Shown here piece by piece: positions 23,872-59,554 of a stretch of DNA of 64,000 bases (position 1 is its first letter; every line of letters begins with the position of its first letter). The notes beneath the pieces were generated by a model that was given only the letters and a program-made list of their open reading frames with translations, had not been told where the DNA came from and did no database searches. Origin of the DNA: a bacterium (GTDB taxonomy: Bacteria; Patescibacteriota; Microgenomatia; Curtissbacterales; GWA2-41-24); the NCBI GenBank assembly GCA_021813125.1, contig JAKALT010000004.1, positions 7,941 to 71,940 of the forward strand. Direction: 5' to 3'. A program made the position numbers and the translations under genes.

Positions 23872-24059
23872 GACAAAGGAATCTTAACGACTGAAAATTA
23901 GTTAATAAATTAATATTTGGTGCGGGGAAGTGTAGTTTGAATCTACCACTGTGCCGCAAGGGTAAACAAGTCCCAGTACCGCATCAAATTTTACTAAATC
24001 CCGAGCAGGATAATCGTCTAAATAAACGACTTTAACCTTCTTGGGATCAAGGAGGTTTT

Positions 24060-25331
24060 TTGTTGAAGGAAGCAAATGTTTGTCTGTTGAAGGCCGATGA
24101 TCCCTGCTACCGGAGTGAGGTAGAAGTTGACAGGTTCTCGGTAACGCCTCTAGAACCCGATGAGGCTGACCTGGCGTTTAGGCCGTCTCTTATTAAGCAT
24201 CGCTACAGTGAATTTATAAACTACGGATTTAATGAATTCGAATCATATTGCCGTACTTATAATTTGACCAGGAGTGATTTAACTTCTTACTTTTTGGAAC
24301 AATTTGCCAAAAAAAATTTGGTTGGTTTTGAATACCATTTTGAAACGACAGATGATGGGTCGGTTAATATGGTTTCCACCCATTACGAACAGTCTGGTGA
24401 CGTCTGCGATAGCTTCGCAAGAGCTCGAGACGAAAGGCGATTGGCTGGCTTAGATTCCTCACGTGAGGAGGCAGAGCTTGAAGGTGTAAGAAAGATAAAA
24501 TCAGAACTTCTACAAGAGGGAAAAGATGCAACTGTTCTTTTGGTAAGCAGGCCTCCTGAAAAAAATCAAAACCGTCCCGGTTATGCCGGCTACAGTTTCA
24601 TTTATTTTGGAAAATACGATACCAAGACCGGAAATCTGCCAATGTATGCTTGGAGAAATTACATGACAGTAGACGAGCAAAATGAGTTACGAAGAGAATT
24701 TTTAGGCTTTGAAACAGAGAAAATGAAGGATGCAAACGATTTTTTAAGAAATCCGGCTTTTTCCTTTGGAGAGGAAGGGAATTATGCCTTTGACAGATTA
24801 AGATTTCGGGCAGGAAAAGAAGTAGCAGATCTTTACGATTACAGGTCTGAAGTTGTTGATAGAGCTGCAAAGGAGCTTGTCGATCTTGCGGAAGCAGGGG
24901 TAAGCGATTGGCGTATGAACATCGCCCAAGCAAATATCGAACTTGATTTTATTGAGGCAATTGAAGGAAAACGCAGTTTAAAGTTAGAACCTTCGTCTAA
25001 AACGGAAAGTTTTAAATCCGATGCGGAGGCTTACGGATATATGGTGGCTAGAAAGAAAGATATGGAATCAAAATATAATTTGGCTTCTTATTCGGGTGGA
25101 GGCTGTGGGCGATCAATATTTGCTTCGGTTGGCGGTGAGGCCGAAGGCGCAATAGGTTTGATACCGACACTTGCTATTTCTGATTTGCACTTAAACGGTC
25201 GGGAATATTCAGCGAATTTTAATTGCCCGAAGTGTAACGGAAAGATTATATCTGGACGAGGAATTACCACTTGTCCGCACTGTGGATTTACCAAAGAACA
25301 AGCGGCCAAAGAAATGGGAATTGCCTGCTAG
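24060..25331 (+). CDS. Hypothetical protein with a C-terminal zinc ribbon
   Basis: 423 aa. The C-terminus CPKCNGKIISGRGITTCPHCG is a CxxC...CxxC ribbon. Confidence 0.4.
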   Translation: MLKEANVCLLKADDPCYRSEVEVDRFSVTPLEPDEADLAFRPSLIKHRYSEFINYGFNEFESYCRTYNLTRSDLTSYFLEQFAKKNLVGFEYHFETTDDGSVNMVSTHYEQSGDVCDSFARARDERRLAGLDSSREEAELEGVRKIKSELLQEGKDATVLLVSRPPEKNQNRPGYAGYSFIYFGKYDTKTGNLPMYAWRNYMTVDEQNELRREFLGFETEKMKDANDFLRNPAFSFGEEGNYAFDRLRFRAGKEVADLYDYRSEVVDRAAKELVDLAEAGVSDWRMNIAQANIELDFIEAIEGKRSLKLEPSSKTESFKSDAEAYGYMVARKKDMESKYNLASYSGGGCGRSIFASVGGEAEGAIGLIPTLAISDLHLNGREYSANFNCPKCNGKIISGRGITTCPHCGFTKEQAAKEMGIAC

Positions 25332-25435: not shown

Positions 25436-28400
25436 TCAGGTTGATTTATTGCTGGAGAAGATTACCAGGCCTGTCCCGCAATTTGGGGCACAAACTGTTT
25501 CTTGGTAAGTTGTTGAAGGTTGGAGGCCGGTGAAGGTTGCTTGAGGCAGTGTTGAGTTGTCGTTTATAGTCTGAGTCTTGCAAAGACTTCCTGCCGCACT
25601 GCAGCTTGAAAAAGAAGCAGGGTAAACAACGGCAACGTATGACCAACCCCAAGACATCGAGGCGCTGCCGTCCGCATTGGCTCTTGTACCGCCCGATTTT
25701 ATAATGGGCCCAGTTCCGTCTGTCACTCTCACCTCAAAGATGAGTGATGAGCCAGGCCAAAAGATAAACTTCGGAGTTGAACAGGAAAGACTAGTACTTC
25801 TGCAGTCGGAAGTTTTTTTGTTTACATCAACGAAACCGGCGTAACCCCATGGTCTTCCCCAGCTGAGGTTGAGGCTTGTATTCGGAGGGGTTGGTGTAGG
25901 GGTAGGCGTTGCCTTTGGGGTAGGTGTTGGTGTGGGCTTCGGGGTTGGAGTGGGTGTGGCTTCAGGAGGCAAAGTTGGAAGCGGTGTCGGTGTAGGTGTC
26001 GGACCGGGTGTCGGGGGTGGCGTGGGTGACGTTGTCGGATTTGGTGTCATGGTTGGTTTTGGGATACAGCTGGTATCGATATTTTGATAATGCTGCAGAA
26101 CAAGAGGTTTTAAGGCCATGTCACGGACGAACATTTTGAAACAGTCGGTTGAGCCGATTAAGGGCTGTTTACCTTCGCCAGTTGTATCGCCGAGAACGTT
26201 TGAAGTTGACACACCTAAGGAGGCGCCGCCTACCTGGCCAGGGAGTTTTTTGGTGAGGCCGGAGATAATCGATTCAGCCATTAATGATGCACATGTTTTA
26301 AGGGCGGGAAGGTTCAGTAAATTATCCTCTACACATTTCTTGATCTGTGGAAAGTTGTCAGATTCCGGCAGGTTAGCCCAGTTGAGTAAGCCGCTGCAAT
26401 CTCCAGCTTTGCATTGATCCAGTAAATCTTGGAGATGTGCAGCAAGAGGGTCTTGCTGGCCTTGATTAGCGCTTTGTAAGACAAGATTGGGTGTAAAAAA
26501 CGCGTAAACACCCGGCCGGCCGGTTTTTTGAATTGAATTTGGCCCATCAATATTCTCTGCAGTGTCCGAGGCAAGGGTGTGATTCCAGATTTCACCGATC
26601 CAGGGAATCCTAAACACCGGCCAGACACTGACTGTTGCCGTACAGGTTTCTATTCCTGCTGTTATTGCACAACTATCCCACTGGCCGTTGCCGGAGGTTG
26701 GCAAATCCATTTGTTTGGAAAAGGTAAATGTAATGTTGCAGACGACGTTGGTGTTTTGGGGATCCAGCTGATTTGGGTCGTTGGCGTTTGGTTGGCTGCA
26801 GGTGCCCGCAGGAAGTTGGCCCGCCGGAACTGCACAATAGGGGGCCGTCCCGGAGCGGCCGTTTCCGAGCACTTTTACGCATGTAGGATCAGAAGCAGCG
26901 TAGGCATTTTTGATCGGGTGGATGTTTTCGATTTGCAGGTAGCTGACGACCTTTTTTAAGGCTTTGGTTAGCGGGTTTTGGGAGGCCAGGAAAACGCATC
27001 TTTTGATGATTTTAGCGAGTACGTTTTGGGTGCCTTGAGTTGAGGCTTGAAGGATCAGGTTGTTTTGGGTAGACTGCGCGATTTTAGGGGCAAGCATCAT
27101 ATTGGTTATGCCGGTTGTGGCAGCAGCGCGGAAAGTGTCGGGCATAATGAAGGTAATTGGCGGTCTGGAGTCAAATGGCACTGGGCATGTTCCTCCATTT
27201 TTAATTTGCGTTATCATGTCGCTTCCAACACCTACTTTAAATTCCAGTTTTCCCTCGTAGTATTCGTTGTAGGCTGTTGGAATTTTTACCCAATAAGGCC
27301 CCCATGTTGACTGGAAATTAGCTGAATCTGGGTTTGGGGCCCCCCATTTTTGGACCATGTCATAGATTGTATGAGGGTTCAGGCCGTTAACATCGGTTAT
27401 GATACTTGTCGATTCGGCCAAAGTAGGCTTGTTGTAAACGTAGTTGACGTATTTGACTCTCAACTGGTTGGTCAAGACTTTTGAGCCCGCTTTTTGATTG
27501 GGGCCAAAAAAGTTGTCACGGTCTTCGGTTGTTACTGAGGTTAAAGGAGCTTGTTGGTGGTTTGGGTCCTGATAACGGCCTTCTGTGTAATTTGAATTAT
27601 TGTCGGCAAAAATTGCCTGCAGTTTGGACATGTCGAGGGTGAAGGTGAATTGTTTATTTGGAGGGTCTGTAACAGCTGTAACGGTTGAGCCGGGAGCGCC
27701 GGTACCTTTGATGGTAAATGTGAAGTTAGGGTCTTGAGGGTTGCCCTTGTCGTCTGTAATGTAATGGTCTGTCAGGTTATCGGTTTGAACTGCGTTACTG
27801 CAAGCTTCGGGTTTAGGTGGTGGGGGAGGCGTGGGGGTAGGATTAGGCGTTGGTGTGGGAGGTGTGCTAGAAAGTGTGATTCTAACCGCATTGGAAATTT
27901 GGGCTGTGAAGTAGGTTAAGGCTGCACAGAAAGTTCCGTTATAACCATTCCATATTTGCGAGTTGCCGCTTACATGGATATTCCCGCCGGTAGCCGGCAG
28001 TCCGGTATTAGCATCAATTATATTTAAATAAACTTCTTGAGATGAGAGTATTGGGAGGCTTAAAGAGCCGTTTTCAAAGGTGAAATTAGCGTTTGTGCCA
28101 CTTATTGATGGTGGATCTTTGAGCTTATACTGACCTGTGTTTATTTGGTTACACTCACCGGGAGGTGGCGGACCACCGATAGTGAAATTTGGTGTTTTTG
28201 CAAGGACAGAAAAGCCGTAAACCAACCCTCCGCAGTATGTACCTGGCGGCGCACTGTTCCAAATTGTTGTGTTTGGCGAGCCGATGGGTAGCGGACCTGA
28301 GTCGAAGGCGGGTGGCACGGTGAAGTCACAGTTGGGTGCTGCCCAAACCCCGAAGTTACCATTGGGAGGTGTATGGGAAAAGGTAACAGTGTTGCCGCTA

Positions 28401-30241
28401 ACGGAGGCACTAATAGACCATGTTGATGGTGTTGGTGATGGTGGAGGGGGCGCGCCAATTGTTACGGTTCCGGAAAGACCTGAGGCATCAATTGAGGTGA
28501 TTGAGATTGTTACACCGTTTGTGGGGTCGGAAAAGCTAGTACCGGGTTTAAAAGCGGCATCTATTAAATCTGTCCAGTCATTTGGGTCAGCTGATGTGGA
28601 ATCTGGTGTTGAGTCTATTAAATAACTGTGGATATCCCCTGGTTGGTTAAAACGAATTAGGGCGCCGTTTTGTCCCGCAGATGGAATTCCTGTATCTAAT
28701 CCAGTAGGTTGCCGCCATTCCACATAGTACCAGGATACAGTTCCCCCCATAGGTTCGGTGATCCTGGGTACTTTGATAACATTAATGCAGCTGGTACTTT
28801 CGAAAGGACACAGACGAAATGGGCTTGAACTGGTGATAGTTTGTGTATTTCCACTATTGAGCCACCCATAAATATCCTTGTGAGGAGCGTCCACATCGAA
28901 AACATCAACTCCCATTACAGAATAAAGACCGTTGTATTCCTGGGTTGTGCATCCTGTTGTGGTATATATTGCCGAGCCACAATCCCAGTCATTTGAATGG
29001 TCAGCACCTAGCTGGTGGCCAATTTCGTGTGTGAGGCCATGATTGCCAAAATTTTGATTACCGAAAGGGGTGACATAAGCACCATTAGTGGAAGATGTGA
29101 AACCTATGGTAACAGATTTTGTACCTGTGGAATCGACGATGGGGTACGTGACGGGAGGCATCCATGCAAACCCAAGTGAGGTATTGCAGTTAACTACGAA
29201 ATGTACATGTCCATATTGGGTAAAATCGACGCTTGCTGTTGAGGCATTGATGAAGTCAGGGATTTGGGTCCATAGTGCTACCGGATCATTATTACAACTG
29301 GTCCCTACATTTAATGGGATATTAAACCAACCGTATACGTCAGGTTGAATGTCTAGCTGGCCATTAGAGGAGGCTAAAAAAAAATTTTTCATAAAATTGA
29401 CATAACCTTCAACGTCGGTTTTTGAGCCATTTGGATATTCAGGAGGCTGGTCTTGCCAACGAACTAAAATAACGGCTACCTTTTGAGGGCCTGTGGAGAT
29501 AGATGTTCCCTGAACATTGCTTGTTTTGGAGTCTTTTACCAATACAGTGTTGTCCCACTTATAACCATCAACAGAAATTCTTGCTCCGTTTTGGTTAGGT
29601 TCATCAACGAACTTTAGAAGGTAAACTTCTTTCGGGCTTTGTTGGAGCATGTTTACTCTTTGAGGTTTCTCGTTGGCCTTTTCTATATATGTTTGAAGCA
29701 GAGTTCCTTCCTTGTTGAACGATTGTTCCAAGTCGTTTGGAGCTAAATCCTGAATAGGCTTGCGTTCGGCGTCGGGGATTGACAAGGCTAAGGCTTCGGA
29801 TATTTTATCTTCCTTGATTAGGGATAAAACTTCTTTTTTACGAGCTGCTGCTGTTTCTTTTATTTTCGATTCTAAAGCTTCTTTTTCCTTCCCTTGTGAT
29901 TTTTCATACTTTTTAGCCAGGGAAACTAATTCGGAGGTATCTTTTTGAGCCTGGGTGACAGTTGATGGAGCTGGCGAAGGTTTATGTTTTAAAAGTTTAA
30001 AGCCGAATATTAAGACAGATATTATGGACACTAAAAGCAGGACAATTAGGCTTATCTTGCGGAGAAATTTGAAATTTGGTGGAGGTTTTTGCGGATTTGG
30101 CGGCTGGTTTTGGAATTTGGTACCGGGATTTTCACCAAGCTGATTTGCAGTCGGTGACTGGAGACCGCCATTTAATGTCCCTTCGAGGCTGAAAGGCGTG
30201 GCCATACAAACAGTGTACATTTGATATATAACGTGTGACAA
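25436..30241 (-). CDS. Giant membrane-anchored metzincin-type zinc metalloprotease (1601 aa) with multiple beta-rich domains and Pro/Thr linkers
   Basis: HEIGHQLGADH (aa 405-415) matches the HExxHxxGxxH metzincin motif. A candidate Met-turn, LYSVMG, lies about 30 aa downstream. An N-terminal TM anchor spans aa 61-83. PTPTPTP linkers are present, and the C-terminal region is Cys-rich. Confidence 0.6.
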   Translation of the reverse strand: MSHVIYQMYTVCMATPFSLEGTLNGGLQSPTANQLGENPGTKFQNQPPNPQKPPPNFKFLRKISLIVLLLVSIISVLIFGFKLLKHKPSPAPSTVTQAQKDTSELVSLAKKYEKSQGKEKEALESKIKETAAARKKEVLSLIKEDKISEALALSIPDAERKPIQDLAPNDLEQSFNKEGTLLQTYIEKANEKPQRVNMLQQSPKEVYLLKFVDEPNQNGARISVDGYKWDNTVLVKDSKTSNVQGTSISTGPQKVAVILVRWQDQPPEYPNGSKTDVEGYVNFMKNFFLASSNGQLDIQPDVYGWFNIPLNVGTSCNNDPVALWTQIPDFINASTASVDFTQYGHVHFVVNCNTSLGFAWMPPVTYPIVDSTGTKSVTIGFTSSTNGAYVTPFGNQNFGNHGLTHEIGHQLGADHSNDWDCGSAIYTTTGCTTQEYNGLYSVMGVDVFDVDAPHKDIYGWLNSGNTQTITSSSPFRLCPFESTSCINVIKVPRITEPMGGTVSWYYVEWRQPTGLDTGIPSAGQNGALIRFNQPGDIHSYLIDSTPDSTSADPNDWTDLIDAAFKPGTSFSDPTNGVTISITSIDASGLSGTVTIGAPPPPSPTPSTWSISASVSGNTVTFSHTPPNGNFGVWAAPNCDFTVPPAFDSGPLPIGSPNTTIWNSAPPGTYCGGLVYGFSVLAKTPNFTIGGPPPPGECNQINTGQYKLKDPPSISGTNANFTFENGSLSLPILSSQEVYLNIIDANTGLPATGGNIHVSGNSQIWNGYNGTFCAALTYFTAQISNAVRITLSSTPPTPTPNPTPTPPPPPKPEACSNAVQTDNLTDHYITDDKGNPQDPNFTFTIKGTGAPGSTVTAVTDPPNKQFTFTLDMSKLQAIFADNNSNYTEGRYQDPNHQQAPLTSVTTEDRDNFFGPNQKAGSKVLTNQLRVKYVNYVYNKPTLAESTSIITDVNGLNPHTIYDMVQKWGAPNPDSANFQSTWGPYWVKIPTAYNEYYEGKLEFKVGVGSDMITQIKNGGTCPVPFDSRPPITFIMPDTFRAAATTGITNMMLAPKIAQSTQNNLILQASTQGTQNVLAKIIKRCVFLASQNPLTKALKKVVSYLQIENIHPIKNAYAASDPTCVKVLGNGRSGTAPYCAVPAGQLPAGTCSQPNANDPNQLDPQNTNVVCNITFTFSKQMDLPTSGNGQWDSCAITAGIETCTATVSVWPVFRIPWIGEIWNHTLASDTAENIDGPNSIQKTGRPGVYAFFTPNLVLQSANQGQQDPLAAHLQDLLDQCKAGDCSGLLNWANLPESDNFPQIKKCVEDNLLNLPALKTCASLMAESIISGLTKKLPGQVGGASLGVSTSNVLGDTTGEGKQPLIGSTDCFKMFVRDMALKPLVLQHYQNIDTSCIPKPTMTPNPTTSPTPPPTPGPTPTPTPLPTLPPEATPTPTPKPTPTPTPKATPTPTPTPPNTSLNLSWGRPWGYAGFVDVNKKTSDCRSTSLSCSTPKFIFWPGSSLIFEVRVTDGTGPIIKSGGTRANADGSASMSWGWSYVAVVYPASFSSCSAAGSLCKTQTINDNSTLPQATFTGLQPSTTYQETVCAPNCGTGLVIFSSNKST

Positions 30242-30268: not shown

Positions 30269-30628
30269 CTAGCTTGTAAACCTTACGTTTGAGAGGTCAA
30301 ACCCCAGAAGATTTTGAAGAAGCAGAATTATAAGCCAGGAAACTACCACCAAAATAATGCCAATTAGGGCATAAGTCATGGTGTTTCTGGCTCCAGCCGT
30401 AGCTTTCGGGTCTCCTCCGGACATCAGAAACTGAAAACCGCCAACCAGCAACATAAAGAAAAAGGCAATCCCAGCAGCCGGGGCCAAAAGGCCAATGATG
30501 TTTTTTATAACGTTTACAATATCCGCCAATTGGGCAGGCGTGTTGGGATCGCCCGGAACTGTACAGCCCGACAATACAAGTGCCAAGGCCGAAAAGGCAA
30601 TGAAATGCCTCAGCTTGTTGAAAACCAT
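30269..30628 (-). CDS. VirB2/TrbC-like (T4SS-type) pilin-like small protein
   Basis: 119 aa. A lipoprotein-like signal peptide (LSGC) is followed by two hydrophobic helices flanking the loop MSGGDPKATAGAR. Confidence 0.5.
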   Translation of the reverse strand: MVFNKLRHFIAFSALALVLSGCTVPGDPNTPAQLADIVNVIKNIIGLLAPAAGIAFFFMLLVGGFQFLMSGGDPKATAGARNTMTYALIGIILVVVSWLIILLLQNLLGFDLSNVRFTS

Positions 30629-31032
30629 TATGATCCAGCGACAGTTGGAATGGTTAATGATCCAGAGATGATTGTGACACCAAAGAATGTTTCAACAAGT
30701 TTGATGATTGCAAATGCCAGCAGAACGATAACCAAACCGATTAGGGCGGCTGTGATCATACCTCGTGCTCCGGCAACAGACTTTTCGTCTCCTCCTGCCG
30801 TGATCCACCTGAGACCACCGATCAAAAGGAAGATGAAGGCCAAAACGAAAGCGATCAAAAGAATGAACCTGATGACGGCTCTGACAATTTGGATGATGTC
30901 CGTGTTACCTTGAAGCTCACTTGGTACGATGTTTTGAGCAAAGACTGCCATTGGCAGAGTCATTGCTGCTGCTTGCAGTGCGGCGAAGCCGATTAATTTT
31001 TTAGCTTTTGACATATTTTCACCTCCTTTCAA
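30628..31032 (-). CDS. VirB2/TrbC-like pilin-like small protein
   Basis: 134 aa. A signal peptide is followed by two helices flanking TAGGDEKSVAGAR. It shares the AFAIIKLVETFFGVTI segment with the next gene. Confidence 0.5.
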   Translation of the reverse strand: MKGGENMSKAKKLIGFAALQAAAMTLPMAVFAQNIVPSELQGNTDIIQIVRAVIRFILLIAFVLAFIFLLIGGLRWITAGGDEKSVAGARGMITAALIGLVIVLLAFAIIKLVETFFGVTIISGSLTIPTVAGS

Positions 31033-31084
31033 AGTAAGTTACTTGCGAATAAAGTCTAGAACAAAAACTCATTTTTGCGCCCTA

Positions 31085-31423
31085 TTATCTTGTCGGTAGC
31101 TGGAAGCCGCCGGAAACAATTGTGACGCCAAAAAAAGTCTCTACTAATTTGATTATAGCAAAGGCACCGAGGACTACAATCATGCCAATCAAGCCCCAAT
31201 AAATTTGTGCCCAGGCGGAGGAAACAGATTTGGAATCGCTCCCTGATGTTATGAAGCGAAAACCTGCCAGAATTATCCAGATAAAAGAGAGTATGAAGCC
31301 GCCAATTAAGAGCATCGATATTGAACCTCGAATTAATCCGGCGACAAAGTTGGAGGGATTGCCGCCTACTGTCGGGACACCGCCCGGAGGATTGATTGTA
31401 CCTAGTTGGGCAAGATTAGTCAT
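31085..31423 (-). CDS. VirB2/TrbC-like pilin-like small protein
   Basis: 112 aa. Two hydrophobic helices flank TSGSDSKSVSSA, and the second helix is paralogous to that of the 30628-31032 gene. Confidence 0.45.
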   Translation of the reverse strand: MTNLAQLGTINPPGGVPTVGGNPSNFVAGLIRGSISMLLIGGFILSFIWIILAGFRFITSGSDSKSVSSAWAQIYWGLIGMIVVLGAFAIIKLVETFFGVTIVSGGFQLPTR

Positions 31424-32469
31424 TAGGTGATTGGTATATTAGACTGCAAAAAGTACTGTAAAATCCTGACTATCACAAAAGCCAAAACTATGACTGCAAT
31501 TCCAATGATAGCATAGGTTAAGGTACCCTTGGCGCTTGCAAGTTTTTTCTCATCACCTGAGGATGTTGCAAATTTAAAGCCTGCCAAAACAATGAAGAAA
31601 AGCGCTAAGGCACCTGCAAGGCTGACTAAGACTAACAGTACATCTGAGACAAGCTGCCCAAATGACCCAAAACGTTTAGCGGGTTGAAAAACGTCCATGA
31701 TATTGAAAGGCGGAGCAGGGTTGTCGGGGTTATTCCAGTTATTACAATTGTCGGGGGCGGTAAATGGGACAGTATTAGATATATCAACCCAGGCTAAACG
31801 TAGCACTGCCGTGTCTGCCCCTTTCTGGTGGGCAGTATAAGTGACAGAGGTGACACCATCGGGGATGATTGGGGAAGTATACCCAGCTCCCAAAACAGCC
31901 AGGGCACTATTGTGACCGGCACCAGGTGTACCGTCCTTTCTTGCAATAGAAAAAACAAAGTCGCAGCCGGCTGAACTTTGCAGAGCCAATGTGAAATTAA
32001 TTGCATCCCCCGGCGGCGGAGTAGGAGGAGGACCGCAGGTTGGTGCCGTGACGCTGGCCGGGGTTGGATAGGTATCGACAAGCCCATTCCAAATCCGCCA
32101 TTCATAGGTTACTCCGGGTGCGAACCCGCCTGACTCGTAGCTGAAAGGTCCTATCCCAATATTTGTTATTCCTGAAAGACCACCCCAGGTGTATGATGTG
32201 GTGGTTCCGGGGATATACTGACCTGGATGAGTGGCGTCCGGCCACGCTGCTCCTGGTTCTCTGACATCAAGATAATAATAACTGCTTATTTCGCTATCGT
32301 TCCATTCAAATTTGATAAACCCTGCATCCCCAAAGCATCCGGCTGTGGCAGTTAGATTGTAAGGAGTTGCAAAAACTGGTTTTGCTCCTTTTGCTAGGAA
32401 AACTGCAGCGAATACTAAGACGAAAGAAAATGAGATTAGGGTTTTTGCGAGTTTGCTATTAAGAAACAC
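31423..32469 (-). CDS. Secreted beta-rich protein with a C-terminal pilin-like module (putative adhesin-pilin fusion)
   Basis: 348 aa. A signal peptide is followed by a P/T/G-rich ectodomain. The C-terminus reads FIVLAGFKFATSSGDEKKLASAKGTLTYAIIGIAVIVLAF. There is a 1-nt overlap with the downstream gene. Confidence 0.5.
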   Translation of the reverse strand: MFLNSKLAKTLISFSFVLVFAAVFLAKGAKPVFATPYNLTATAGCFGDAGFIKFEWNDSEISSYYYLDVREPGAAWPDATHPGQYIPGTTTSYTWGGLSGITNIGIGPFSYESGGFAPGVTYEWRIWNGLVDTYPTPASVTAPTCGPPPTPPPGDAINFTLALQSSAGCDFVFSIARKDGTPGAGHNSALAVLGAGYTSPIIPDGVTSVTYTAHQKGADTAVLRLAWVDISNTVPFTAPDNCNNWNNPDNPAPPFNIMDVFQPAKRFGSFGQLVSDVLLVLVSLAGALALFFIVLAGFKFATSSGDEKKLASAKGTLTYAIIGIAVIVLAFVIVRILQYFLQSNIPIT

Positions 32470-34963
32470 CGGTGCCTCCTAAAAATAGTTTATCGACAAT
32501 TTGCAAAACTGCAAAGGCAAGGATAATAACGGCGAGGCCAATAAGGGCGAAAATGAGTCGATTTCTCGCCGAGGCTGCCGCTTCCGGGTTGCCGGAAGAT
32601 GTTATGAATTGAATTCCTGAGATGACGATTATGATAATCGAGAGGAATCCGGCTATGCCAAATATGTATGGCAGAATTGCAGAAATTATTCCGCCGGGTG
32701 TTGCAAGCGCACAGTTTTTTATCGGCCCCTGGACTACGCCTGCACCTCCCGGGAAAGCAAGCCAGCCGCATTTGTTGTTTTGAGGCAAAGTAAAGTCGAC
32801 AACTCCTGACTCTTCTGACATAAAAACCACAACAACAGCTTGATGATGTCCGTTAGGTAGGGCATTGAAGCGGACAATACCGCCGCCTGCTGGGACCGGT
32901 TGGCTTAAGCCGTCAAGGTCTTTAATTGCGACAATGGCTTCACCGCCTATTCCGGGACAATTATCAGTTGGGCATTTTACATTAAAGATGGCATCGTTTC
33001 CGTTTATGACACTGGCAAGATACATGGTCCATTGGATGGCGTCGGTTTTGCAGGGAACGTCTATATTAACTGGGTTAGAAACTTGGTTTGCAGCATAGAT
33101 TATTTCCGCGGTGTAGCTGGCGGGTGTTGCCGGTGCGTCCCAGACGACGCTGGAGACATTTTCTGGTATCGAGATTTCCGCGCCGGTTTCGTTGATGTGG
33201 ATGACGCTACTTTTTCCGGAATTGGGTGAGATGCCGAAAATCACTTTGTACTCAAAGCAATTGGTAATTGAAAGTGTCCAGGTGTTGCCCGGGGGCGGGT
33301 TGACGGTAAAAAACTGGGTATTGGAAACTGCTACTCCGAATGCCAGCTGAGCGCAATAGTCGCCAACAGGCGGGAAGTTCCAAGTGACTTGAGTATTGCC
33401 CGATGCTATGGCGCCGCTATCAAACGGTCTTGGTAAAACACCCCAGTTACAGACGTCCCCGCTGCGTGGAGCAACAACAAGGGCAATATTGCCATTTGAT
33501 TCTGGGGTAAATGAAAATAGGACGGATAGTTGATTACTGGCAACATTTGGCGGGTCCAGATGCCAAGTTGCGACTGCTTTTACGGTGAGGGTGTTTGTTG
33601 CACCTACCGTAAGGGCACAAAGGTTTTTGGTGACATCGTCCCTCGCCCCAACGAGATAAGTTGTGTCGCTTGGCACATTAGGGGCTGTTAGCGGAATATT
33701 GCCAAGCCCGGTTCTGGTCCCACTACTTGGAGCCGAAAGGGAATCAATCGCAGCAAAGAATGTATGGGTTGAGTCACCACTTATGATTGAAACAGTTATG
33801 CTTCCCCCCTCGTCTACTGTTGTTGGAGAGAAATTGTAACTGCATGGGGTAGGCGGGTTGACGTTGATAACAACAGAATCGCTGGCGCTTCCGCCGGGCC
33901 CATTACAATTTAAAGTGTACGTGGTATCTATGATTAAGCTAGGTGTGGGTTGACCGGGTGATGACGTACCACTCCAACCTCCAGGAGATACGGAGCATGT
34001 TGTGGAGTTTGTTGAGGACCAGGTAAGAGTGGCAGTAGCACCATAGCTAATGGTTATGGGGCCATTGGAACCGTTAGCTTTAATATCGGCAGTTGGTGCT
34101 GGTGCAGTTACTGTTACCGAACACGTGGCATTTTGGGTACCGCTTGTGACAGTGACGGTTTTGGTCCCGGCAGTTGAATAATTCGTTGCAAAGTTCGAGC
34201 CAGACCCAGAAGATGGTGTCCCTCCGGGTGCTGACCAGCTGAATGTTCCGGTGCCTGCCGCGGCTGTGAAATTGGCGTTGACTCCAGTTGTAACTGTTTG
34301 TGTTGGCGGTGAACAGGTAGGTGCCGGAGGCGGGGCGACATTAACTGTGACGGAGGCCGTAGCAGTTCCACTGACATTGGTGCAGGTTAAGGTGAAGGTA
34401 GTTGTGGATATAAGGTTGCCGGTTGGTTGGGTACCGCTTGTGGCAACGGATGTGCCATTTAGAGTGCAGGTATCTGCGTTTGTTGAAGTCCAGGTTAAGT
34501 CTGTTGACGTGTTATATGGAATATTGGTGCTGGCTGCGGTTATGGAGACAGTTGGTACGGGAGGGGCGATGACGGTGATTGTGATACCGGTAGTTGGAGA
34601 ACAGATTTCCGGAAATGGGGTGAGGGGGTTTGATGTTCCGGCTACAACTAAGAATGATCCAGAATATGATCGTGGGTCACCAGCACCAAATAGATCATCA
34701 AGGTTTACTGTGGTGGTGAAGGAATTGCTGGGTGTATTAAAGTTTGTGGGAAAGAGACTGCTGTCATATTTAATTACGTAATCCACGTTTGGTTGGAGGT
34801 TTTGGACTGTTACATTAAAAGACCCATGGGCGACAACTTCCGTTGTTGAGACAATCAACTGACAGCCGGCTTGGGCTTCTATAGGTTTTGGAGAAGCGGC
34901 AAAAGGCAGCAATATGAGAACAAACGTAAACAAAACGGCAGCTAACTTCAGGAACAGTTTCAT
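32459..34963 (-). CDS. Large secreted multi-Ig-like-domain protein with a C-terminal pilin-like module
   Basis: 834 aa. A signal peptide is followed by about 700 aa of T/S-rich repeated beta domains. The C-terminus reads IIVISGIQFITSSGNPEAAASARNRLIFALIGLAVIILAF. Confidence 0.5.
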   Translation of the reverse strand: MKLFLKLAAVLFTFVLILLPFAASPKPIEAQAGCQLIVSTTEVVAHGSFNVTVQNLQPNVDYVIKYDSSLFPTNFNTPSNSFTTTVNLDDLFGAGDPRSYSGSFLVVAGTSNPLTPFPEICSPTTGITITVIAPPVPTVSITAASTNIPYNTSTDLTWTSTNADTCTLNGTSVATSGTQPTGNLISTTTFTLTCTNVSGTATASVTVNVAPPPAPTCSPPTQTVTTGVNANFTAAAGTGTFSWSAPGGTPSSGSGSNFATNYSTAGTKTVTVTSGTQNATCSVTVTAPAPTADIKANGSNGPITISYGATATLTWSSTNSTTCSVSPGGWSGTSSPGQPTPSLIIDTTYTLNCNGPGGSASDSVVINVNPPTPCSYNFSPTTVDEGGSITVSIISGDSTHTFFAAIDSLSAPSSGTRTGLGNIPLTAPNVPSDTTYLVGARDDVTKNLCALTVGATNTLTVKAVATWHLDPPNVASNQLSVLFSFTPESNGNIALVVAPRSGDVCNWGVLPRPFDSGAIASGNTQVTWNFPPVGDYCAQLAFGVAVSNTQFFTVNPPPGNTWTLSITNCFEYKVIFGISPNSGKSSVIHINETGAEISIPENVSSVVWDAPATPASYTAEIIYAANQVSNPVNIDVPCKTDAIQWTMYLASVINGNDAIFNVKCPTDNCPGIGGEAIVAIKDLDGLSQPVPAGGGIVRFNALPNGHHQAVVVVFMSEESGVVDFTLPQNNKCGWLAFPGGAGVVQGPIKNCALATPGGIISAILPYIFGIAGFLSIIIIVISGIQFITSSGNPEAAASARNRLIFALIGLAVIILAFAVLQIVDKLFLGGTGVS

Positions 34964-35016
34964 CTCGGCTTAACTTAAATGTAGCATTTTTCGAAGATTG
35001 ACGCTAAAAGTAGCGA

Positions 35017-35946
35017 TTAAGAATTGTATACAAGCCCCGGTATAGGAACAATGGCAACACCTAAAAATTGCATAATTATCACGGAAAAGGCTATGAAAAG
35101 TGCTCCGGCTATGGCAGCGACGATCATTTCCCGGCCTCCCGACATTTTTTGAGGGTCGCCAGACGAAGTCATAACACGTATTGATCCGATGACCATAAGA
35201 ATTAAAGCGATGCCTCCCGATATACCGAGGGCAATGCGAAGAAGCGTTGTTGCAAAATCACCAATTTTAATAGGTATTGTGCCTATTGCTGTTTCGCACC
35301 CAGCCTTGCATGGGTTGAAACCTGCACTTGAAGTGCTACCAACGCTACCACTACCAATTCCATTTATAGGGTCTGCTATTGCAGCATAATGTTGGCACTG
35401 TGCAAGGTCGGTATAGGTACTGGGATATGAAGATACGCGGCATTGATAAGTATTGTTTGTATCCACATATATTTCATAATATGTGGTATCTGGAGGGTGA
35501 AAGTAGGGATCCTTGGAAGAATCATAAGGAATAGGGTCTGCGGTAGTACTCCCGCAATCGATCTCCTTTCCACTTATGAGTAGTTGCTTGTAATCAAAAG
35601 TATATGATCCACCGCTATATGGGATTTTGCCAGCAATTGAATAAGTTGTGCTTATTGCTGAATTGTAGGATATGTTTGTTATTTTAGTTTTACCTTTGTA
35701 TATTATTCCGAGCGAGTACCAGTCACCAGTATCGTAATAACCGGGGTTAGCTGCACCGGTCACCACAGCATTATTGAAAAAAAGCATGATCTGAGTTCCG
35801 TCTGAAGAAACCATGGAGAATACATAGGCAAGTTGACAAGTATCTGCTTGAGCATTTGGAGGTTTTATTAATACTGTTCCAAGGGTTAATAGAAAAATAA
35901 TGGCAAACGATAAAAAACCAGGAACAAACTTGAGGAGCAGTTTCAT
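35017..35946 (-). CDS. Secreted protein with a C-terminal pilin-like module
   Basis: 309 aa. The C-terminal roughly 95 aa (CKAGCETAIGTIPIKIGDFATTLL...VMTSSGDPQKMSGGR...) are about 90% identical to the C-terminus of the 36068-37432 gene. Confidence 0.5.
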   Translation of the reverse strand: MKLLLKFVPGFLSFAIIFLLTLGTVLIKPPNAQADTCQLAYVFSMVSSDGTQIMLFFNNAVVTGAANPGYYDTGDWYSLGIIYKGKTKITNISYNSAISTTYSIAGKIPYSGGSYTFDYKQLLISGKEIDCGSTTADPIPYDSSKDPYFHPPDTTYYEIYVDTNNTYQCRVSSYPSTYTDLAQCQHYAAIADPINGIGSGSVGSTSSAGFNPCKAGCETAIGTIPIKIGDFATTLLRIALGISGGIALILMVIGSIRVMTSSGDPQKMSGGREMIVAAIAGALFIAFSVIIMQFLGVAIVPIPGLVYNS

Positions 35947-36000
35947 ACGCTTATCTCAAATGTAGCATTTTTGGAGCTTTACCGCTAAGTTGCCAGGATA

Positions 36001-36045
36001 AAGGTCAGGCCTTTGCTAAGGATCGCCCAAGTTAAGCCTGACCTT
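36001..36045. repeat. Palindromic intergenic element, copy 5
   Basis: AAGGTCAGGCCTT...AAGCCTGACCTT, lying inside the pilin-module array between the 309-aa and 454-aa genes. Confidence 0.6.
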
Positions 36046-36067
36046 AGCTTTTGATATGGCTCCGATT

Positions 36068-37432
36068 TTAGCCTGTGAAGTAGCCCAGTCCCGGTATTGG
36101 AACAATGGCAATGCCTATGAATTGCATAATCATAACGGAAAAAGCGATAAAAAGGGCACCGGCTATTGCTGCAACAATCATATCCCGACCACCAGCCATT
36201 TTTTGAGGATCACCAGATGAAGTCATAACACGTATTGATCCGATGACCATAAGGATTAAAACGATACCACCCGAAATGCCCAGAGCAATTTTCAAAAGAG
36301 TACTGGCAAAGTCGCCAAGATTGATAGGAATAGTGCCCAATGCTGTTTGACAGATGCCGCCGTTACACGGGTTCTTGCCCGCGCCGCCGCCAGCAGCAAC
36401 ACCGATGGAAAGACTATTTGTGCATTGAACCTGGCTTGGTGACCCTGGTAAGTCTGTAATATTGACAGCGTAAGTACCGACAAGCGCATCTTTAGGGATT
36501 GTTACCATGGCACCCCCTTGGGTATAGTGTATGGCTGGATCAAGTTCTACTACTCTGAACGTAGCAATATTTTTGTAATCGGGCGTACCATTTACATTTA
36601 CAAGCTCTACGGGATAATCGCCAACCGGGAACTGCTGTCCTATTACAGCAAAATCATCTCCCGCTTTTAGACCAGGTGAAGAAGCGTCGCACTTGGCAAG
36701 GGTTAAACTGACTTGAAGGTCAGGCGTACAGGTAACCGGTGGACTGGTTTCGACAACGACCGTATAAGTTCCCGGGGCAATACTTTGGGGCAGGTTAAAA
36801 TCGGATAACCAAAAATCCCAGGGGAAGCTAATGTAACTTACGCTCCCTATGTGATAGTAGCCCGGATTGATATCAACGGCATACGAAGCGTTTTTGTCGT
36901 CAAGAGCTGAGCCGTGCAGGGTCACACCAAATTTACCCCCCGGTGTGTCTTGCGGTGTTTGCACGGTGCAACCTAGGGGTATGTTGGGTTTGTTTCCGGG
37001 TGAGCCGTCGCCGAATATTACTGTGTATGAGATATCGTTACCACATGTGGTTCCATCCTGGTCTTTGACAGTAATTGTTAATGTGTCGGCATTTAGGTCA
37101 AATCCACCAAACTGTAGATCGGAGAGCGGGATTTTTTCGTAGTATGAATTGCTGCTGTCTAGAATACCAATGTCGGAATGACCGGTAGGGTCAGTGATTC
37201 GAAAATTATAGTTGTTGCCCGGCGTATGGATTGTCATCCAAAATTCAAGGGGAGGGCTTGTAGCGTTTGCTGGATATACGTGCTGATTAATCCAGAAATT
37301 GCAAGTTGCTGCATCTGCCGGTTTTGGGTTTTGCGCAATTAAAACTGCATAAAATAGGATTGGAAGCGTCAAGAAGACTACAAGCCTAAAGAAGGCCTTT
37401 ATTTGCATGCTTAATTTCAGTTTAGCACCCAT
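36068..37432 (-). CDS. Secreted protein with a C-terminal pilin-like module
   Basis: 454 aa with a signal anchor and an ectodomain. The C-terminus reads CNGGICQTALGTIPINLGDFASTLL...VMTSSGDPQKMAGGR.... It is the first gene of the array. Confidence 0.5.
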   Translation of the reverse strand: MGAKLKLSMQIKAFFRLVVFLTLPILFYAVLIAQNPKPADAATCNFWINQHVYPANATSPPLEFWMTIHTPGNNYNFRITDPTGHSDIGILDSSNSYYEKIPLSDLQFGGFDLNADTLTITVKDQDGTTCGNDISYTVIFGDGSPGNKPNIPLGCTVQTPQDTPGGKFGVTLHGSALDDKNASYAVDINPGYYHIGSVSYISFPWDFWLSDFNLPQSIAPGTYTVVVETSPPVTCTPDLQVSLTLAKCDASSPGLKAGDDFAVIGQQFPVGDYPVELVNVNGTPDYKNIATFRVVELDPAIHYTQGGAMVTIPKDALVGTYAVNITDLPGSPSQVQCTNSLSIGVAAGGGAGKNPCNGGICQTALGTIPINLGDFASTLLKIALGISGGIVLILMVIGSIRVMTSSGDPQKMAGGRDMIVAAIAGALFIAFSVMIMQFIGIAIVPIPGLGYFTG

Positions 37433-37582: not shown

Positions 37583-39283
37583 TTGCGAGCAATTTCTGAT
37601 GTATCCCATCACTATGTGATGGGATATAATGTGTGGGCTCCAATGAGGAAAGTTTTTGCCCTGATTTTACTGGTTTTGTTGCTTGGTCTGTTTTTTATTC
37701 ATAATGTCAGGGCCGATGAACTTGAAGATTTGCAAAAGCAGATAAACGACCTTCAACACCAACTGGATCTTTCTAAAAACGCAACAACGCCGCTTGAGTC
37801 TCAGGTGAAGGATCTGGACGGTCAACTTTCGGCAATCGGGGCAAGACTTAATGCGATTTCTGCCGATTTGGTGCAAAGCGAGAAGGATATTTTGGAGCAG
37901 AAAAAAGTTTTGGCAGGAACTGTTAGGAATTATTACATCCAGAGTTTTGTGGATATTCCGCTTTTGACGCTTTTTGCGACAAGAGACGCAACGGATACTC
38001 TAAGAATTATTGCTTTTCAACAACTTTCCAGTAAAAGTGACCGGGAGATAATTTCGACTATTTCCGAGCGGGTTGCCAAGCTTGCCGATGATAAAAAACG
38101 TTTGGCTTCGGCTAAAGCCCAAATAGATAAACAGTCACAATTTTTAAAAGGGGAGATTGCTTCGGCAAAATCGTTCCAGAGCCAGCTTGAAGGTCAGATT
38201 TCGGCTCTAAGTGCCAGGCAACAGGAAATTTTGTCGGAAAAGTCTGGCACATTTCAAACGACGGTTGGGGATGTTCCTCTAGCTGACGATGTTGCGAGCA
38301 GGCCGGATTACAATCCCGGTTTTTCACCCGCATTTGCTGCATTTTCTTTTGGAGCTCCACACTTTAAAGGAATGAGCCAGTACGGTGCGTTGGGGAGGTC
38401 AAAACAGGGGCAAAGTTATGAGCAGATTTTGAAGGCATATTATGGAGGAGGGATTGAAATTAAGGACCAGGATCCAAACACCCAGATCAATGTGGAAGGA
38501 TATGGTACGTATTCTCTCGAGGAGTATGCAAAGCGAATATACGAGATGCCTGGAAGCTGGGGAGATGAAGGAGGAATGGAAGCACTAAAGGCACAAGCTA
38601 TTGCGGCAAGAAGCTACGTATTGGCACGCGGCGGGTCGATTTGTGCAACAGAATCATGTCAAGTATTCAAGCCGGAACCAAAAGGAGGTAATTGGGAACA
38701 GGCGGTCAATGCGACGCGGGGCAAAGTTTTGTATGCAAATGGCCAGCCGTTTTCGACTTGGTACGCTTCAACTTCAGGAGGATATCAGGAATCTTATAGC
38801 TCAAACGGTTATTCAACGCCAGGTTTTTGGGATACTCCAAACGGGCGAAGCGGTTGGACGAGTCAGGCTTATGAAAAAATTGCGGGCAGTCCATGGTTTT
38901 ATAAGGGTTGGTACAGGAGTAGATCAGGTGATAGTTGTGGTAGAAGTCATCCGTGGTTGACCAGCGAGGAGATGGCAGATATTTTGAACGGCTGGAAAGT
39001 GCTCTCTGAAGGGGGAGGCGATGGCTCGAGAGTGACACCATTAGGTTCCTGCTGGGGCGGAAATCCGTATAGTATGGGTGAACTCCGCTCGATTGGTGGG
39101 TTCACAAGTGTGTCAGGTGTAAGCGTTTCATACTCTGATGGCGGAGTCACTGCGAGTGTTGTATTTCAAACTAATAAAGGAAGTGTGACTATTAATGGCA
39201 ATGATTTTTATAAAGTATTTAATTTGCGAGCACCAGGGAGAATATCTTTGAAGTCTGGCCTTTACAACATAGAGAAGAAGTAA
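37583..39283 (+). CDS. SpoIID/LytB-domain protein (peptidoglycan remodelling) with an N-terminal coiled-coil
   Basis: GMSQYGALGRSKQGQSYEQILKAYYGG matches the SpoIID/LytB signature. The signal peptide starts at the internal Met (MRKVFALILLVLLLG), so the real start is probably near 37643. Confidence 0.55.
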   Translation: MRAISDVSHHYVMGYNVWAPMRKVFALILLVLLLGLFFIHNVRADELEDLQKQINDLQHQLDLSKNATTPLESQVKDLDGQLSAIGARLNAISADLVQSEKDILEQKKVLAGTVRNYYIQSFVDIPLLTLFATRDATDTLRIIAFQQLSSKSDREIISTISERVAKLADDKKRLASAKAQIDKQSQFLKGEIASAKSFQSQLEGQISALSARQQEILSEKSGTFQTTVGDVPLADDVASRPDYNPGFSPAFAAFSFGAPHFKGMSQYGALGRSKQGQSYEQILKAYYGGGIEIKDQDPNTQINVEGYGTYSLEEYAKRIYEMPGSWGDEGGMEALKAQAIAARSYVLARGGSICATESCQVFKPEPKGGNWEQAVNATRGKVLYANGQPFSTWYASTSGGYQESYSSNGYSTPGFWDTPNGRSGWTSQAYEKIAGSPWFYKGWYRSRSGDSCGRSHPWLTSEEMADILNGWKVLSEGGGDGSRVTPLGSCWGGNPYSMGELRSIGGFTSVSGVSVSYSDGGVTASVVFQTNKGSVTINGNDFYKVFNLRAPGRISLKSGLYNIEKK

Positions 39284-43498: not shown

Positions 43499-43930
43499 AT
43501 GAAAATTTTCAACCGCAAAGCCCGTTTTAAATACCAGTTTTTAGAAAAAGCCGAAGCAGGAATTGTTTTGACGGGAGCTGATATTAAATCGATTAGGGCA
43601 GGTCGGGTTGATCTTTCGGAGGCCTTTGCCAGGATTCGTGACGGGGAGGTTTTTTTGGTGAATGCCAATATATTGCCATGGATGGGATCGCAGAAGTATG
43701 GTGATCCACGAAGGGATAGAAAGTTGCTACTTCACAGGAAGCAGATCCTGAATTGGCAGGGAAAAATGTCCGGCGGCAATTTGGCACTCGTGCCTGTTTC
43801 GATATATTTGAAGGGAAATTTGGCAAAGGTGGAGCTGGCGCTTTCCAAGTCCAAAGCGAAATTTGATAAACGTGCGGCTCTCCGCAAAAAGACAATCAAG
43901 CGCGATATTGAACGGGAAATAAGGGGATAA
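43499..43930 (+). CDS. smpB: SsrA-binding protein SmpB
   Basis: Canonical SmpB sequence (AGIVLTGADIKSIRAGRVDLSEAFARIRDGEVFLVNANI...KLLLHRKQI). Confidence 0.85.
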   Translation: MKIFNRKARFKYQFLEKAEAGIVLTGADIKSIRAGRVDLSEAFARIRDGEVFLVNANILPWMGSQKYGDPRRDRKLLLHRKQILNWQGKMSGGNLALVPVSIYLKGNLAKVELALSKSKAKFDKRAALRKKTIKRDIEREIRG

Positions 43931-44222: not shown

Positions 44223-44229
44223 ATTTTGT

Positions 44230-44642
44230 GGAGATGCCGGGTATTGGGCCCGGGTCCAGAATTACAATTTGTAAACATCTACAAGCTTAGTTTATCTATT
44301 AAATCTTGCCGCAATTTAAAACCGATAAACAGGATAAATTTTGGCAAAGACCAAATTTTTGCCCACCCGTTTGGTCAAAACGACTGGACTATCCCGGCTG
44401 AGTTATTGCCCAAAAAGTTCCACCGGGAAAAAACTTTAAGGACAAGCCTTATTGCTACTTAAAAATTGTTAAGCAGCTAAAAAGGCTGGAGCTGCGCTAG
44501 GAGCAAATGCGCTCCTAATAAACGCAATTCCTTGTGCAATTTTAGATTTTGCACGTAATTTTGAACCAAAGCCTGACGCGCTTTAGATTCGTATTCGGCT
44601 TGCAGTTTGTCAAAGTGCGATCCTGTCGAAACAATACATCCC
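44230..44642 (-). ncRNA. ssrA: Putative tmRNA (ssrA)
   Basis: The minus-strand 5' end GGGGATGTATTGTTTCGACAGG resembles the tmRNA 5' end GGGGCTGATTCTGGATTCGACGGG. An internal reading frame ends ...GCT CCA GCC TTT TTA GCT GCT TAA, giving a tag ...APAFLAA*. The 3' end CATCTCCA pairs with the 5' GGGGATG. The gene is adjacent to smpB. Confidence 0.5.
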
Positions 44643-44699
44643 CAGGAAGCGAAATTATAGCAAAGAATAGATCTATTTTCAAAATTGATATCATGAATT

Positions 44700-59038: not shown

Positions 59039-59554
59039 GAAGATTTATTTGGTATACTCAAGTGTGTATGCCAGATAAGAGAACTTATGCTGACCGCGCC
59101 GAATATTTAAAGCGAGCAGTTACAAAGCGAAGAAGAAAGCTTAAACAACTGGTTGTCGAATACAAAGGCGGTAAGTGCATTCTTTGTGGGTATAACAAAT
59201 CAATGTGGGTTCTCGAATTACACCATGTTGATAGCAGTACTAAAGAATTTAATATGTCTGTTAGGGGTTTAACTCGTTCTTGGGAAAAAATCAAAGCAGA
59301 AGCAGACAAATGTATTCTTGTATGTGCAAATTGTCACAGGGAAGTGCATGCAGGCATTACGCAGCTCCCGAAAGAAATTTTCGGGATGAAAAATCGGGCT
59401 AATTCGGGGAAACCCTGAAACGGGTAATCCCGAGCTAAATGCACGTTCATGTAAACTGAACGTACTAAATGTGTAGAGACTATATACCCGGGGCCTAAGT
59501 CAAAAGATATGGTCATGAGATAGTCCACTCCTTTTGGTAACAAGAGGGTTTGTG
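59039..59554 (+). mobile_element. Putative group I intron within the tRNA anticodon loop, carrying an HNH homing endonuclease ORF
   Basis: A 516-nt insertion separates two perfectly complementary tRNA halves. The 5' exon ends in U and the intron's final nucleotide is G, which are group I splice-site conventions. It contains a 118-aa HNH ORF. Confidence 0.45.
59062..59418 (+). CDS. HNH endonuclease (intron-encoded)
   Basis: CILCGYNKSMWVLELHHVDSSTKEFNMSVRGLTRSWEKIKAEADKCILVCANCHREVHAG contains the CxxC...HH...CxxCH HNH motif. Confidence 0.7.
   Translation: MCMPDKRTYADRAEYLKRAVTKRRRKLKQLVVEYKGGKCILCGYNKSMWVLELHHVDSSTKEFNMSVRGLTRSWEKIKAEADKCILVCANCHREVHAGITQLPKEIFGMKNRANSGKP

Follow-up and report, generated by a model that had tools for sequence, protein, structure and literature searches.

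What kind of structure is encoded by a tandem array of seven genes whose products, small and large, all end in the same pair of hydrophobic helices? The array lies on the minus strand at positions 30269-37432 of a 64-kb stretch of contig JAKALT010000004.1 (the window) and consists of seven consecutive open reading frames (ORFs) of 119, 134, 112, 348, 834, 309 and 454 amino acids (aa), named here by length from g119 to g454; the boundaries and lengths given for it in a first-pass annotation of this DNA are exact. The shared C-terminal module belongs to the Pfam family PF18895 (T4SS_pilin), and the array is of a type already known from Patescibacteria, the new part being the four ectodomain-pilin fusions, their ordered conservation and the turnover of their cargo. 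The most informative result of the analysis is the contrast in conservation between hairpin and ectodomain. The favored reading, to which a probability of about one half is assigned, is that the seven genes encode paralogous VirB2-like pilins of a Gram-positive-type type IV secretion system (T4SS), in which case a tube or short conduit associated with the T4SS would be built from the small ones, with adhesins displayed on its outside by the large ones.

Across genomes the three small proteins are 70-95% identical (g119 70-91%, g134 78-95%, g112 78-88%), and the orthologues of g112 are always 112-113 aa long. Among orthologues of g834, the last 85 residues average 89.6% identity as against 65.6% for the ectodomain. 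The g348 family shows a mean of 81.6% (up to 97%) over its last 100 residues and of 26% over its ectodomains, which vary in length (in proteins of 256-438 aa) and are partly unalignable; at the array position of g348, one related locus (L020) encodes a 256-aa protein and another (L021) a 410-aa protein. Conservation of g309 and g454 between genomes is confined to the last ~110 residues, comprising an NPCxxxC loop and the hairpin, at 70-75% identity. No counterpart of the g309 ectodomain was detected at its position in loci L004 or L007, and over its full length g454 shares 39% identity with its positional orthologue L007_a, with the C-terminal cassette conserved. The same conserved hairpin types thus carry unrelated ectodomains in related genomes, which bears out the earlier proposal that the ectodomains are interchangeable.

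Within a genome, in contrast, the paralogous hairpins are mostly 26-45% identical, the exceptions being g112 and g134 (52%) and the cassette shared by g309 and g454 (84% over the C-terminal 98 aa). Because conservation of each hairpin across genomes is high compared with only ~26-45% between paralogues, the comparison indicates seven old, specialized hairpin types that are strongly constrained and kept in a fixed order, four of them with fast-evolving or exchangeable cargo. At the DNA level, cassettes of the g309/g454 type are 81% identical in the window pair, 85% in the L004 pair and 70-78% between genomes, a likeness of pairs within genomes that would be compatible with occasional gene conversion.

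An ENA contig of 131.6 kb and NCBI assembly GCA_021843035.1 also contain the exact sequence of the array region, and the same ordered block, at 50-79% protein identity, occurs in at least five other assemblies. The related records stem from groundwater metagenomes, and related contigs of ~1 Mb, named homologues from Patescibacteria, DUF5657 and a T4SS beside dnaA are in keeping with a patescibacterial host. The blocks encode proteins of 394, 435, 828, 333, 112, 136 and 120 aa (L004 and L013), 374, 389, 779, 344, 112, 135 and 121 aa (L007), 464, 849, 341, 113, 134 and 120 aa (L011), 837, 256, 113, 130 and 120 aa (L020), and 355, 709 and 410 aa up to the contig end (L021). Where the contig reaches, a SpoIID-domain gene borders them on one side, and on the other side are genes for a large surface protein, a protein of ~400 aa and a membrane protein of ~815 aa. 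Arrays that are more distant (44% identity) open with a single larger gene (up to 271 aa), after which come four small ones. A scan of the genome collection with the g834 alignment returned one locus, and a search with the 111-aa g454/g309 cassette gave 2 hits from 110 candidates, the word index being too coarse for short hydrophobic queries. A gene-calling artifact was rejected as the source of the fusions, which are continuous ORFs and are kept in at least six independent assemblies.

The assignment of the module rests on a Pfam hidden Markov model search, in which PF18895 matches all seven proteins at their C-termini. Relative to its gathering score of 26.6 bits, g348 (39.5 bits), g119 (37.2 bits, residues 37-101), g834 (31.5 bits) and g134 (29.3 bits) lie above the cut-off, and g454 (25.9 bits), g309 (25.1 bits) and g112 (16.2 bits) lie below it. 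These last three are tied to the other members by pairwise BLASTP of the modules alone, with E values of 1e-3 to 1e-26 (e.g., 4e-26 for g112 with g134 and 2e-8 for g454 with g134). A profile built from the seven modules found no further matching ORF within the window. The module is made up of a hydrophobic helix, a polar loop of the form (T/M)(S/A)(S/G)G(D/N)(P/E)xK...(A/G)R, in short SSGD(P/E)xK..(A/G)R, and a second hydrophobic helix. AlphaFold2 models it as a hairpin of two ~35-residue helices at a predicted local distance difference test score (pLDDT) of ~80, with helices at residues 38-72 and 77-111 in g134, and both the hydropathy profile and the models make the helices longer than a simple membrane span. 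Family matches, loop motif, hydropathy and models therefore agree that all seven proteins end in a two-helix module with a polar loop, as had been claimed, and g119, g134 and g112 are the minimal pilin-like proteins they were taken for, with a hairpin and essentially no cargo. The concern that large and small genes might be linked by low-complexity sequence alone was also settled, and that explanation was rejected: the BLASTP similarity between them sits in the hairpin and not in the T/S/P-rich parts.

PF18895-type proteins form a very large family (79,664 clusters at 50% identity, E<=1e-3), and PF18895 is the dominant Pfam domain in freshwater-specific structure clusters. The module also occurs as 2-17 tandem copies in single metagenomic polypeptides, such as P0012 with 6 copies in 552 aa and P0014 with 17 copies in 1775 aa. 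Of the top 149 module hits, 28 additionally have 150 aa or more of sequence outside the module; read-through from use of a wrong genetic code is a possible source of such multi-module or extended proteins.

Segments resembling signal peptides are found at the N-termini of six of the seven proteins; five are of the ordinary type, that of g119 is of the lipoprotein type, and g112 has none. The lipobox of g119, LSGC, is kept in its L004 and L007 orthologues, and a lipid-modified N-terminus on top of a two-helix hairpin, as predicted for this protein, is unusual for a pilin. The ectodomains of g348, g834, g309 and g454 contain 4, 18, 6 and 8 cysteines, respectively, and these uniformly even counts are consistent with disulfide-paired extracytoplasmic domains. 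An AlphaFold2 model of g348 based on 11 sequences (overall pLDDT 63.5, moderate) shows a signal helix and strands at residues 40-141 and 157-238, then a linker of low confidence before a hairpin whose helices span 263-302 and 307-342 (pLDDT 75-83). Its ectodomain consists of two beta-sandwiches that match tandem FN3 pairs in a Foldseek search against the PDB (E 4e-6). Direct comparison of segments of g834 reveals an internal repeat of ~80 aa (44% identity, E 1e-15), one copy of which is deleted in the orthologue P0165, and its central repeats are common to hundreds of large surface proteins from the candidate phyla radiation (CPR), many with PKD, DUF11 or fn3 domains. The ectodomains of g309 and g454 gave no Pfam match. 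Of the earlier description of the four long proteins as carrying a signal peptide followed by Ig-like domains, the signal peptides hold for all four, and the domains are borne out for g348 by its FN3-type sandwiches and for g834 by its repeats.

Two of the proteins that share the g834 repeats, P0268 and P0278, carry the N_methyl domain of type IV pilins. Type IV minor pilins with large C-terminal domains likewise combine a polymerization element with a bulky adhesive domain; they differ in their opposite polarity, with the hydrophobic element at the N-terminus, and in belonging to another family that is served by a PilB/PilC machine and a prepilin-peptidase signal. A type IV pilin reading of the array itself was rejected, as the hydrophobic module is C-terminal, the signal peptides are of ordinary or lipoprotein type, and none of the array proteins matches PF07963, the N_methyl family.

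Arrays of this general type have been described before. In Southlakia epibionticum (ML1), a VirB2-like pilin array is essential together with T4SS genes (Wang 2023, PMC10633639); Table S2 of that study lists SEML1_0014-0019 as PF18895 proteins, two of which also match PF04956 (TrbC/VirB2), with SEML1_0017-0019 measuring 126-138 aa and the PF18895 hits in SEML1_0014-0016 ending by residue ~180. A survey of Patescibacteria counted 441 arrays, each with 2-11 VirB2-like genes, across 383 assemblies, above all of Microgenomatia and Saccharimonadia, with a mean within-array identity of 25% and a frequent location near virB4 and dnaA; pilin genes lay near virB4 in 1135 of 1948 assemblies, and adhesins were not detected in the T4SS loci (Quinonero-Coronel 2025, PMC12102498). 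A 2025 review (PMC12857230) presents these pilins as the first candidates for pili in a monoderm T4SS. The layout, described earlier as non-standard, is therefore not without precedent. The present array shares with the published ones the PF18895 family, the tandem and mutually divergent paralogues (seven, where 2-11 are expected), the monoderm-type T4SS with PrgI, split VirB4 and no relaxase in view, and the setting, with VirB4, TrsD-like and PrgI genes within ~20 genes and dnaA near; g119 is the eighth gene from VirB4, which in turn lies ~6 kb from dnaA. Unlike the small ML1 members, four of the seven proteins are 309-834 aa long and carry ectodomains N-terminal to the hairpin, and unlike the published arrays, this one has its own conserved upstream element and stands 14 kb from VirB4. 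No published description of VirB2-like pilins fused to large ectodomains was found in a literature search of incomplete coverage. Such fusions would have been missed by design in recent searches, because only proteins of 50-150 aa were considered, as in a preprint of December 2025 (10.64898/2025.12.18.695078).

The same preprint identifies PrgF of plasmid pCF10 as a VirB2-like pilin essential for conjugation and points out that every solved conjugative pilus has its charged loop toward the lumen and both termini outward. VirB2, TrbC, TraA and PrgF resemble the array proteins in having a signal peptide, two long hydrophobic helices, a short charged loop, VirB4-type machinery and termini expected outside. 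Known conjugative pilins have mature lengths of 60-100 aa and lack folded domains, and none is known as an ordered set of seven paralogues; the small mature size (~60-100 aa) without extra domains applies to g119, g134 and g112 and not to g348, g834, g309 and g454. Since pilin termini face outward (10.64898/2025.12.18.695078), an ectodomain placed at the N-terminus is topologically compatible with incorporation into a pilus. Conservation of the three cargo-less proteins at 70-95% further suggests that the hairpin is itself the functional unit. Together with family membership and the published work, helix length and, above all, hairpin constraint and fixed gene order, these features argue for a T4SS pilus or conduit with adhesin-bearing subunits.

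In the mechanism proposed, each protein would be exported, five through ordinary signal peptides and g119 through a lipoprotein signal peptide (g112 having none), and would insert into the membrane as a helical hairpin with the SSGDPxK..R loop on the cytoplasmic side and both termini outside. Extracted by a VirB4-driven machine, the hairpins would then be stacked into a tube or short conduit whose lumen is lined by the loop, the N-termini facing outward. The three small conserved proteins would form the body of the tube, and the four large ones would join through the same hairpin, sparsely or at fixed positions, to present FN3/Ig-like stalks and variable distal domains on the outside. These distal domains may bind the host cell, and exchange of ectodomains on conserved hairpin types could retune host recognition. 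The array proteins would thus be expected to polymerize, to depend on the T4SS and to adhere. As adhesins were not found in Patescibacteria T4SS loci (PMC12102498), the fusions could fill that role. A more specific and tentative version is a VirB2-class pilus of seven specialized subunits in which four are adhesins, with folded FN3/Ig-like stalks and hypervariable distal domains placed directly on a polymerizing hairpin, so that an episymbiont would retune its host specificity by swapping ectodomains on invariant cores.

If this more specific version is correct, the fusions would be the first VirB2-class pilins with a large displayed domain relative to the published pilins covered here, would widen the accepted definition of a VirB2-type pilin, and would supply the adhesin reported missing from an essential Patescibacteria T4SS. 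Southlakia epibionticum, the one patescibacterial species tested genetically, cannot do without the T4SS and the pilin array in its epibiotic growth, and fusions with fast-evolving, exchangeable ectodomains in an ordered array are concrete and testable candidates for host contact.

Several results weigh against a T4SS pilus. None of the seven proteins matches PF04956 at E<=1 in the Pfam search, profile similarity to VirB2 and PrgF is undetectable (hhalign probabilities of 0.2% for the module against Agrobacterium VirB2, whose sequence was checked against PDB 8cue, and 1% against PrgF), and a PDB profile search with the module returned no pilin among its matches. The assignment of the module to VirB2/TrbC pilins accordingly stands as far as T4SS_pilin membership and the two-helix hairpin are concerned and finds no counterpart in these direct comparisons. 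The link to the wider VirB2/TrbC superfamily is an indirect bridge through the ML1 proteins that match both PF18895 and PF04956. Several of the seven also match NCBIfam NF045849, the Mbov_0395 family of pilin-like conjugal transfer proteins from integrative and conjugative elements (ICEs) of Mycoplasma, all below threshold (g834 33.6 bits against a cut-off of 40), which fits the reported kinship of Patescibacteria VirB4 to the MPF-FATA class of mating-pair formation systems. Structural likeness to solved pilins is suggestive without reaching statistical significance, as in the match to the conjugation and DNA-import pilin of Aeropyrum pernix (PDB 8dfu), an archaeal, single small subunit with 14-15% identity. 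No PF18895 protein is known to form a filament, AlphaFold2 confidence is only moderate (pLDDT 63-67), and polypeptides with tandem modules do not readily fit the picture of a classical pilin. A distance of 14 kb separates the array from the VirB4 operon, and comparison with Pfam, the PDB and PrgH recognized no VirB6 in the 660-aa and 813-aa proteins of the region. Subunits that each carried an ectodomain of up to ~720 aa would be hard to pack for steric reasons, so that sparse incorporation must be assumed. Fold searches return generic helical hairpins, and the earlier suggestion of a surface filament, with proteins that would polymerize, stands as an inference.

The main rival, which is rather unlikely, holds that the hairpin is a mere C-terminal membrane anchor of fibrillar-adhesin-like proteins, taking the place of an LPXTG or cell-wall anchor, and that no polymer is formed. 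A signal peptide, a beta-sandwich repeat stalk and a C-terminal anchor are indeed the architecture of a fibrillar adhesin, and Gram-positive examples such as PrgB of pCF10 share with the array fusions the signal peptide, a stalk of beta-sandwich repeats that varies in repeat number, and C-terminal attachment. Such adhesins attach by an LPXTG/sortase signal, however, whereas the array fusions end in a pilin-family hairpin and are encoded inside a pilin gene array; no LPXTG or similar covalent cell-wall anchor is visible in the array sequences. Repeats of the g834 type are present on many CPR surface proteins with other anchors, including the two with N_methyl, and the neighboring 1601-aa and 813-aa proteins show the same domains from other membrane anchors. 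Also in favor of this rival, structural searches cannot tell the module from any helical hairpin. Against it, an anchor of a generic kind would evolve fast, and in these proteins no part is better conserved than the hairpin (82-90% against 26-66%); seven distinct hairpin types each hold their array position. An anchor would account for the large proteins but would leave unexplained the three conserved genes that encode a hairpin with essentially no cargo, and it fits poorly with helices of ~35 residues and with published work that ties the family to T4SS loci.

Improbable is a membrane-embedded, hetero-oligomeric ring or platform at the T4SS, c-ring-like or channel-lining, with the ectodomains crowning a site of host contact. 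Fixed gene order and seven specialized types suggest an assembly of defined stoichiometry, the ATP-synthase subunit c domain is the ECOD-type match for SEML1_0018 in published structure-based annotation (PMC10633639), and a pre-linked ring would be in line with the polypeptides that contain 5-7 or more tandem modules. The hydrophobic helices, being long, and the charged loop between them are nevertheless more pilin-like than ring-subunit-like, and for the Gram-positive analogue the PrgF preprint (10.64898/2025.12.18.695078) favors subunits being extruded from the membrane. Least probable is that the array is unconnected to the T4SS, its module being a misnamed, abundant CPR membrane domain and its clustering a tandem duplication of surface-protein genes: the enormous size of the family, the gap between array and VirB4 operon and a non-essential PF18895-type 'pilin' gene outside the T4SS locus of ML1 (PMC10633639) are in its favor, and against it stand the proximity of pilin genes to virB4 in so many assemblies (PMC12102498), the ML1 members that match both pilin families, the sub-threshold match to the Mycoplasma ICE family, and an ML1 array that is essential together with T4SS genes (PMC10633639).

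The arrangement of the array genes and of their neighbors is given in the table. The distances between genes along the array are -1, +52 (~+70 from the real ATG of g134), -1, -11, +53 and +121 nt, so that three of the six junctions overlap, and the claim that all seven genes are translationally coupled does not hold. The true start of g134 is most likely the ATG at 31014, giving a protein of 128 aa, because gene callers and orthologues begin at MSKAKK. A 40-nt element precedes g834, with a second copy before g309, and is a candidate promoter or leader. Its 14-mer core, AAAATGCTACATTT, stands 12-13 nt ahead of the ATG of both genes and is exactly kept upstream of g834 orthologues (L004 7499-7512, L007 7647-7660, L011 2882-2895, L013 8543-8556), being identical in these four assemblies though the g834-family proteins are only ~70% identical. 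The core resembles an extended -10 (TGcTACATT), which would give a nearly leaderless mRNA. Since several junctions do not overlap, a stem-loop follows g454 (-34.6 kcal/mol, z -2.0) and the 40-nt element is repeated before g309 and g834, the array probably comprises several transcription or regulatory units. Promoter and terminator scans gave a signal no higher than that of shuffled controls.

Table. Positions of the array genes and of other features in the 64-kb window.
Feature	Position	Strand	Description
g119	30269-30628	-	Last pilin of the array; small; lipoprotein-type signal peptide (lipobox LSGC) and two-helix module
g134	30628-31032	-	Small, pilin-like; signal peptide and two-helix module; ORF of 134 aa from TTG
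g112	31085-31423	-	Small, pilin-like, without signal peptide; closest paralogue g134, 52% identity
g348	31423-32469	-	Signal peptide, two FN3/Ig-like beta-sandwiches, C-terminal pilin hairpin (residues ~261-347)
g834	32459-34963	-	Signal peptide, ~720-aa Cys-rich, beta-rich ectodomain with ~80-aa repeats, pilin hairpin (residues ~746-831)
g309	35017-35946	-	Signal peptide, ~200-aa ectodomain, C-terminal cassette (NPCxxxC loop and hairpin)
g454	36068-37432	-	First array gene; signal peptide, ~340-aa ectodomain, same C-terminal cassette as g309
40-nt element, copy before g834	34968-35007	-	Candidate promoter or leader
40-nt element, copy before g309	35949-35988	-	Candidate promoter or leader
dnaA	4190-5548		Origin region
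dnaN	5774-6913		Origin region
VirB4	11603-13507	-	P-loop ATPase; P-loop_TraG 104.3 bits; AAA_10 and CagE_TrbE_VirB matches
TrsD/TraC-N-like gene	13504-14397	-	Core T4SS
PrgI/VirB3-like gene	14398-15948	-	PrgI 37.5 bits
813-aa protein	21266-23707	-	Signal peptide, Ig-like ectodomains, C-terminal polytopic membrane domain (transmembrane profile)
AdoCbl-II riboswitch match	23908-23989	+	41.8 bits (gathering score 36.5)
423-aa ORF	24060-25331		No Pfam family; weak C-terminal zinc-ribbon signal
Large surface protein	25436-30241	-	1601-aa ORF, 1589 aa as called; N-terminally anchored; HEIGHQLGADH zincin motif
SpoIID-domain protein	37583-39283	+	PF08486 50.6 bits; long coiled-coil N-terminal region
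smpB	43499-43930		Adjoins the tmRNA gene
tmRNA gene	44226-44643	-	111.7 bits
Group I catalytic intron match	59322-59547	+	66.7 bits

The window spans the chromosomal origin region with yidC, jag, dnaA and dnaN, and downstream of these origin genes lies the monoderm-type T4SS, comprising an M23 peptidase, the 660-aa membrane protein, VirB4, and the TrsD-like and PrgI/VirB3-like proteins. The annotation of a VirB4/VirB6 cluster near the array is correct for VirB4 and PrgI, which lie eight genes off and near dnaA, and finds no support for VirB6, which could not be recognized from sequence; VirB6 has been described as 'scarce' in Microgenomatia. The 813-aa protein could be a channel component, namely a highly diverged, extended VirB6. 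Its residues 39-146 share 55-59% identity with ectodomains that g348-type pilin fusions carry in other genomes, and syntenic counterparts of 815-843 aa are encoded in L004, L007 and L020.

The 1601-aa surface protein has a sub-threshold match to Reprolysin_5 (24.3 bits), and its residues 618-707 are 38% identical to residues 480-574 of g834, a beta-rich domain. Its orthologues of 938 and 1048 aa (L004 12923-15739, L007 12278-15424) are without the protease half and start with a domain that shares 48-52% identity with the first one of g348, so that it is a mosaic protein, and the idea of a metzincin-like partner of the array is not supported by the orthologous loci, from which the protease half is missing. 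The SpoIID-domain gene, on the other side, is divergent from the array in every orthologous locus (L001, L004, L007 and L021), and its product is a possible partner in cell-wall remodeling in a system mostly without VirB1.

The match to a cobalamin riboswitch (AdoCbl-II) is located directly upstream of the 423-aa ORF, which is syntenic beside the pilin array in related genomes (395-422 aa). Further along the window, a group I catalytic intron was matched, and the tmRNA gene next to smpB is ordinary.

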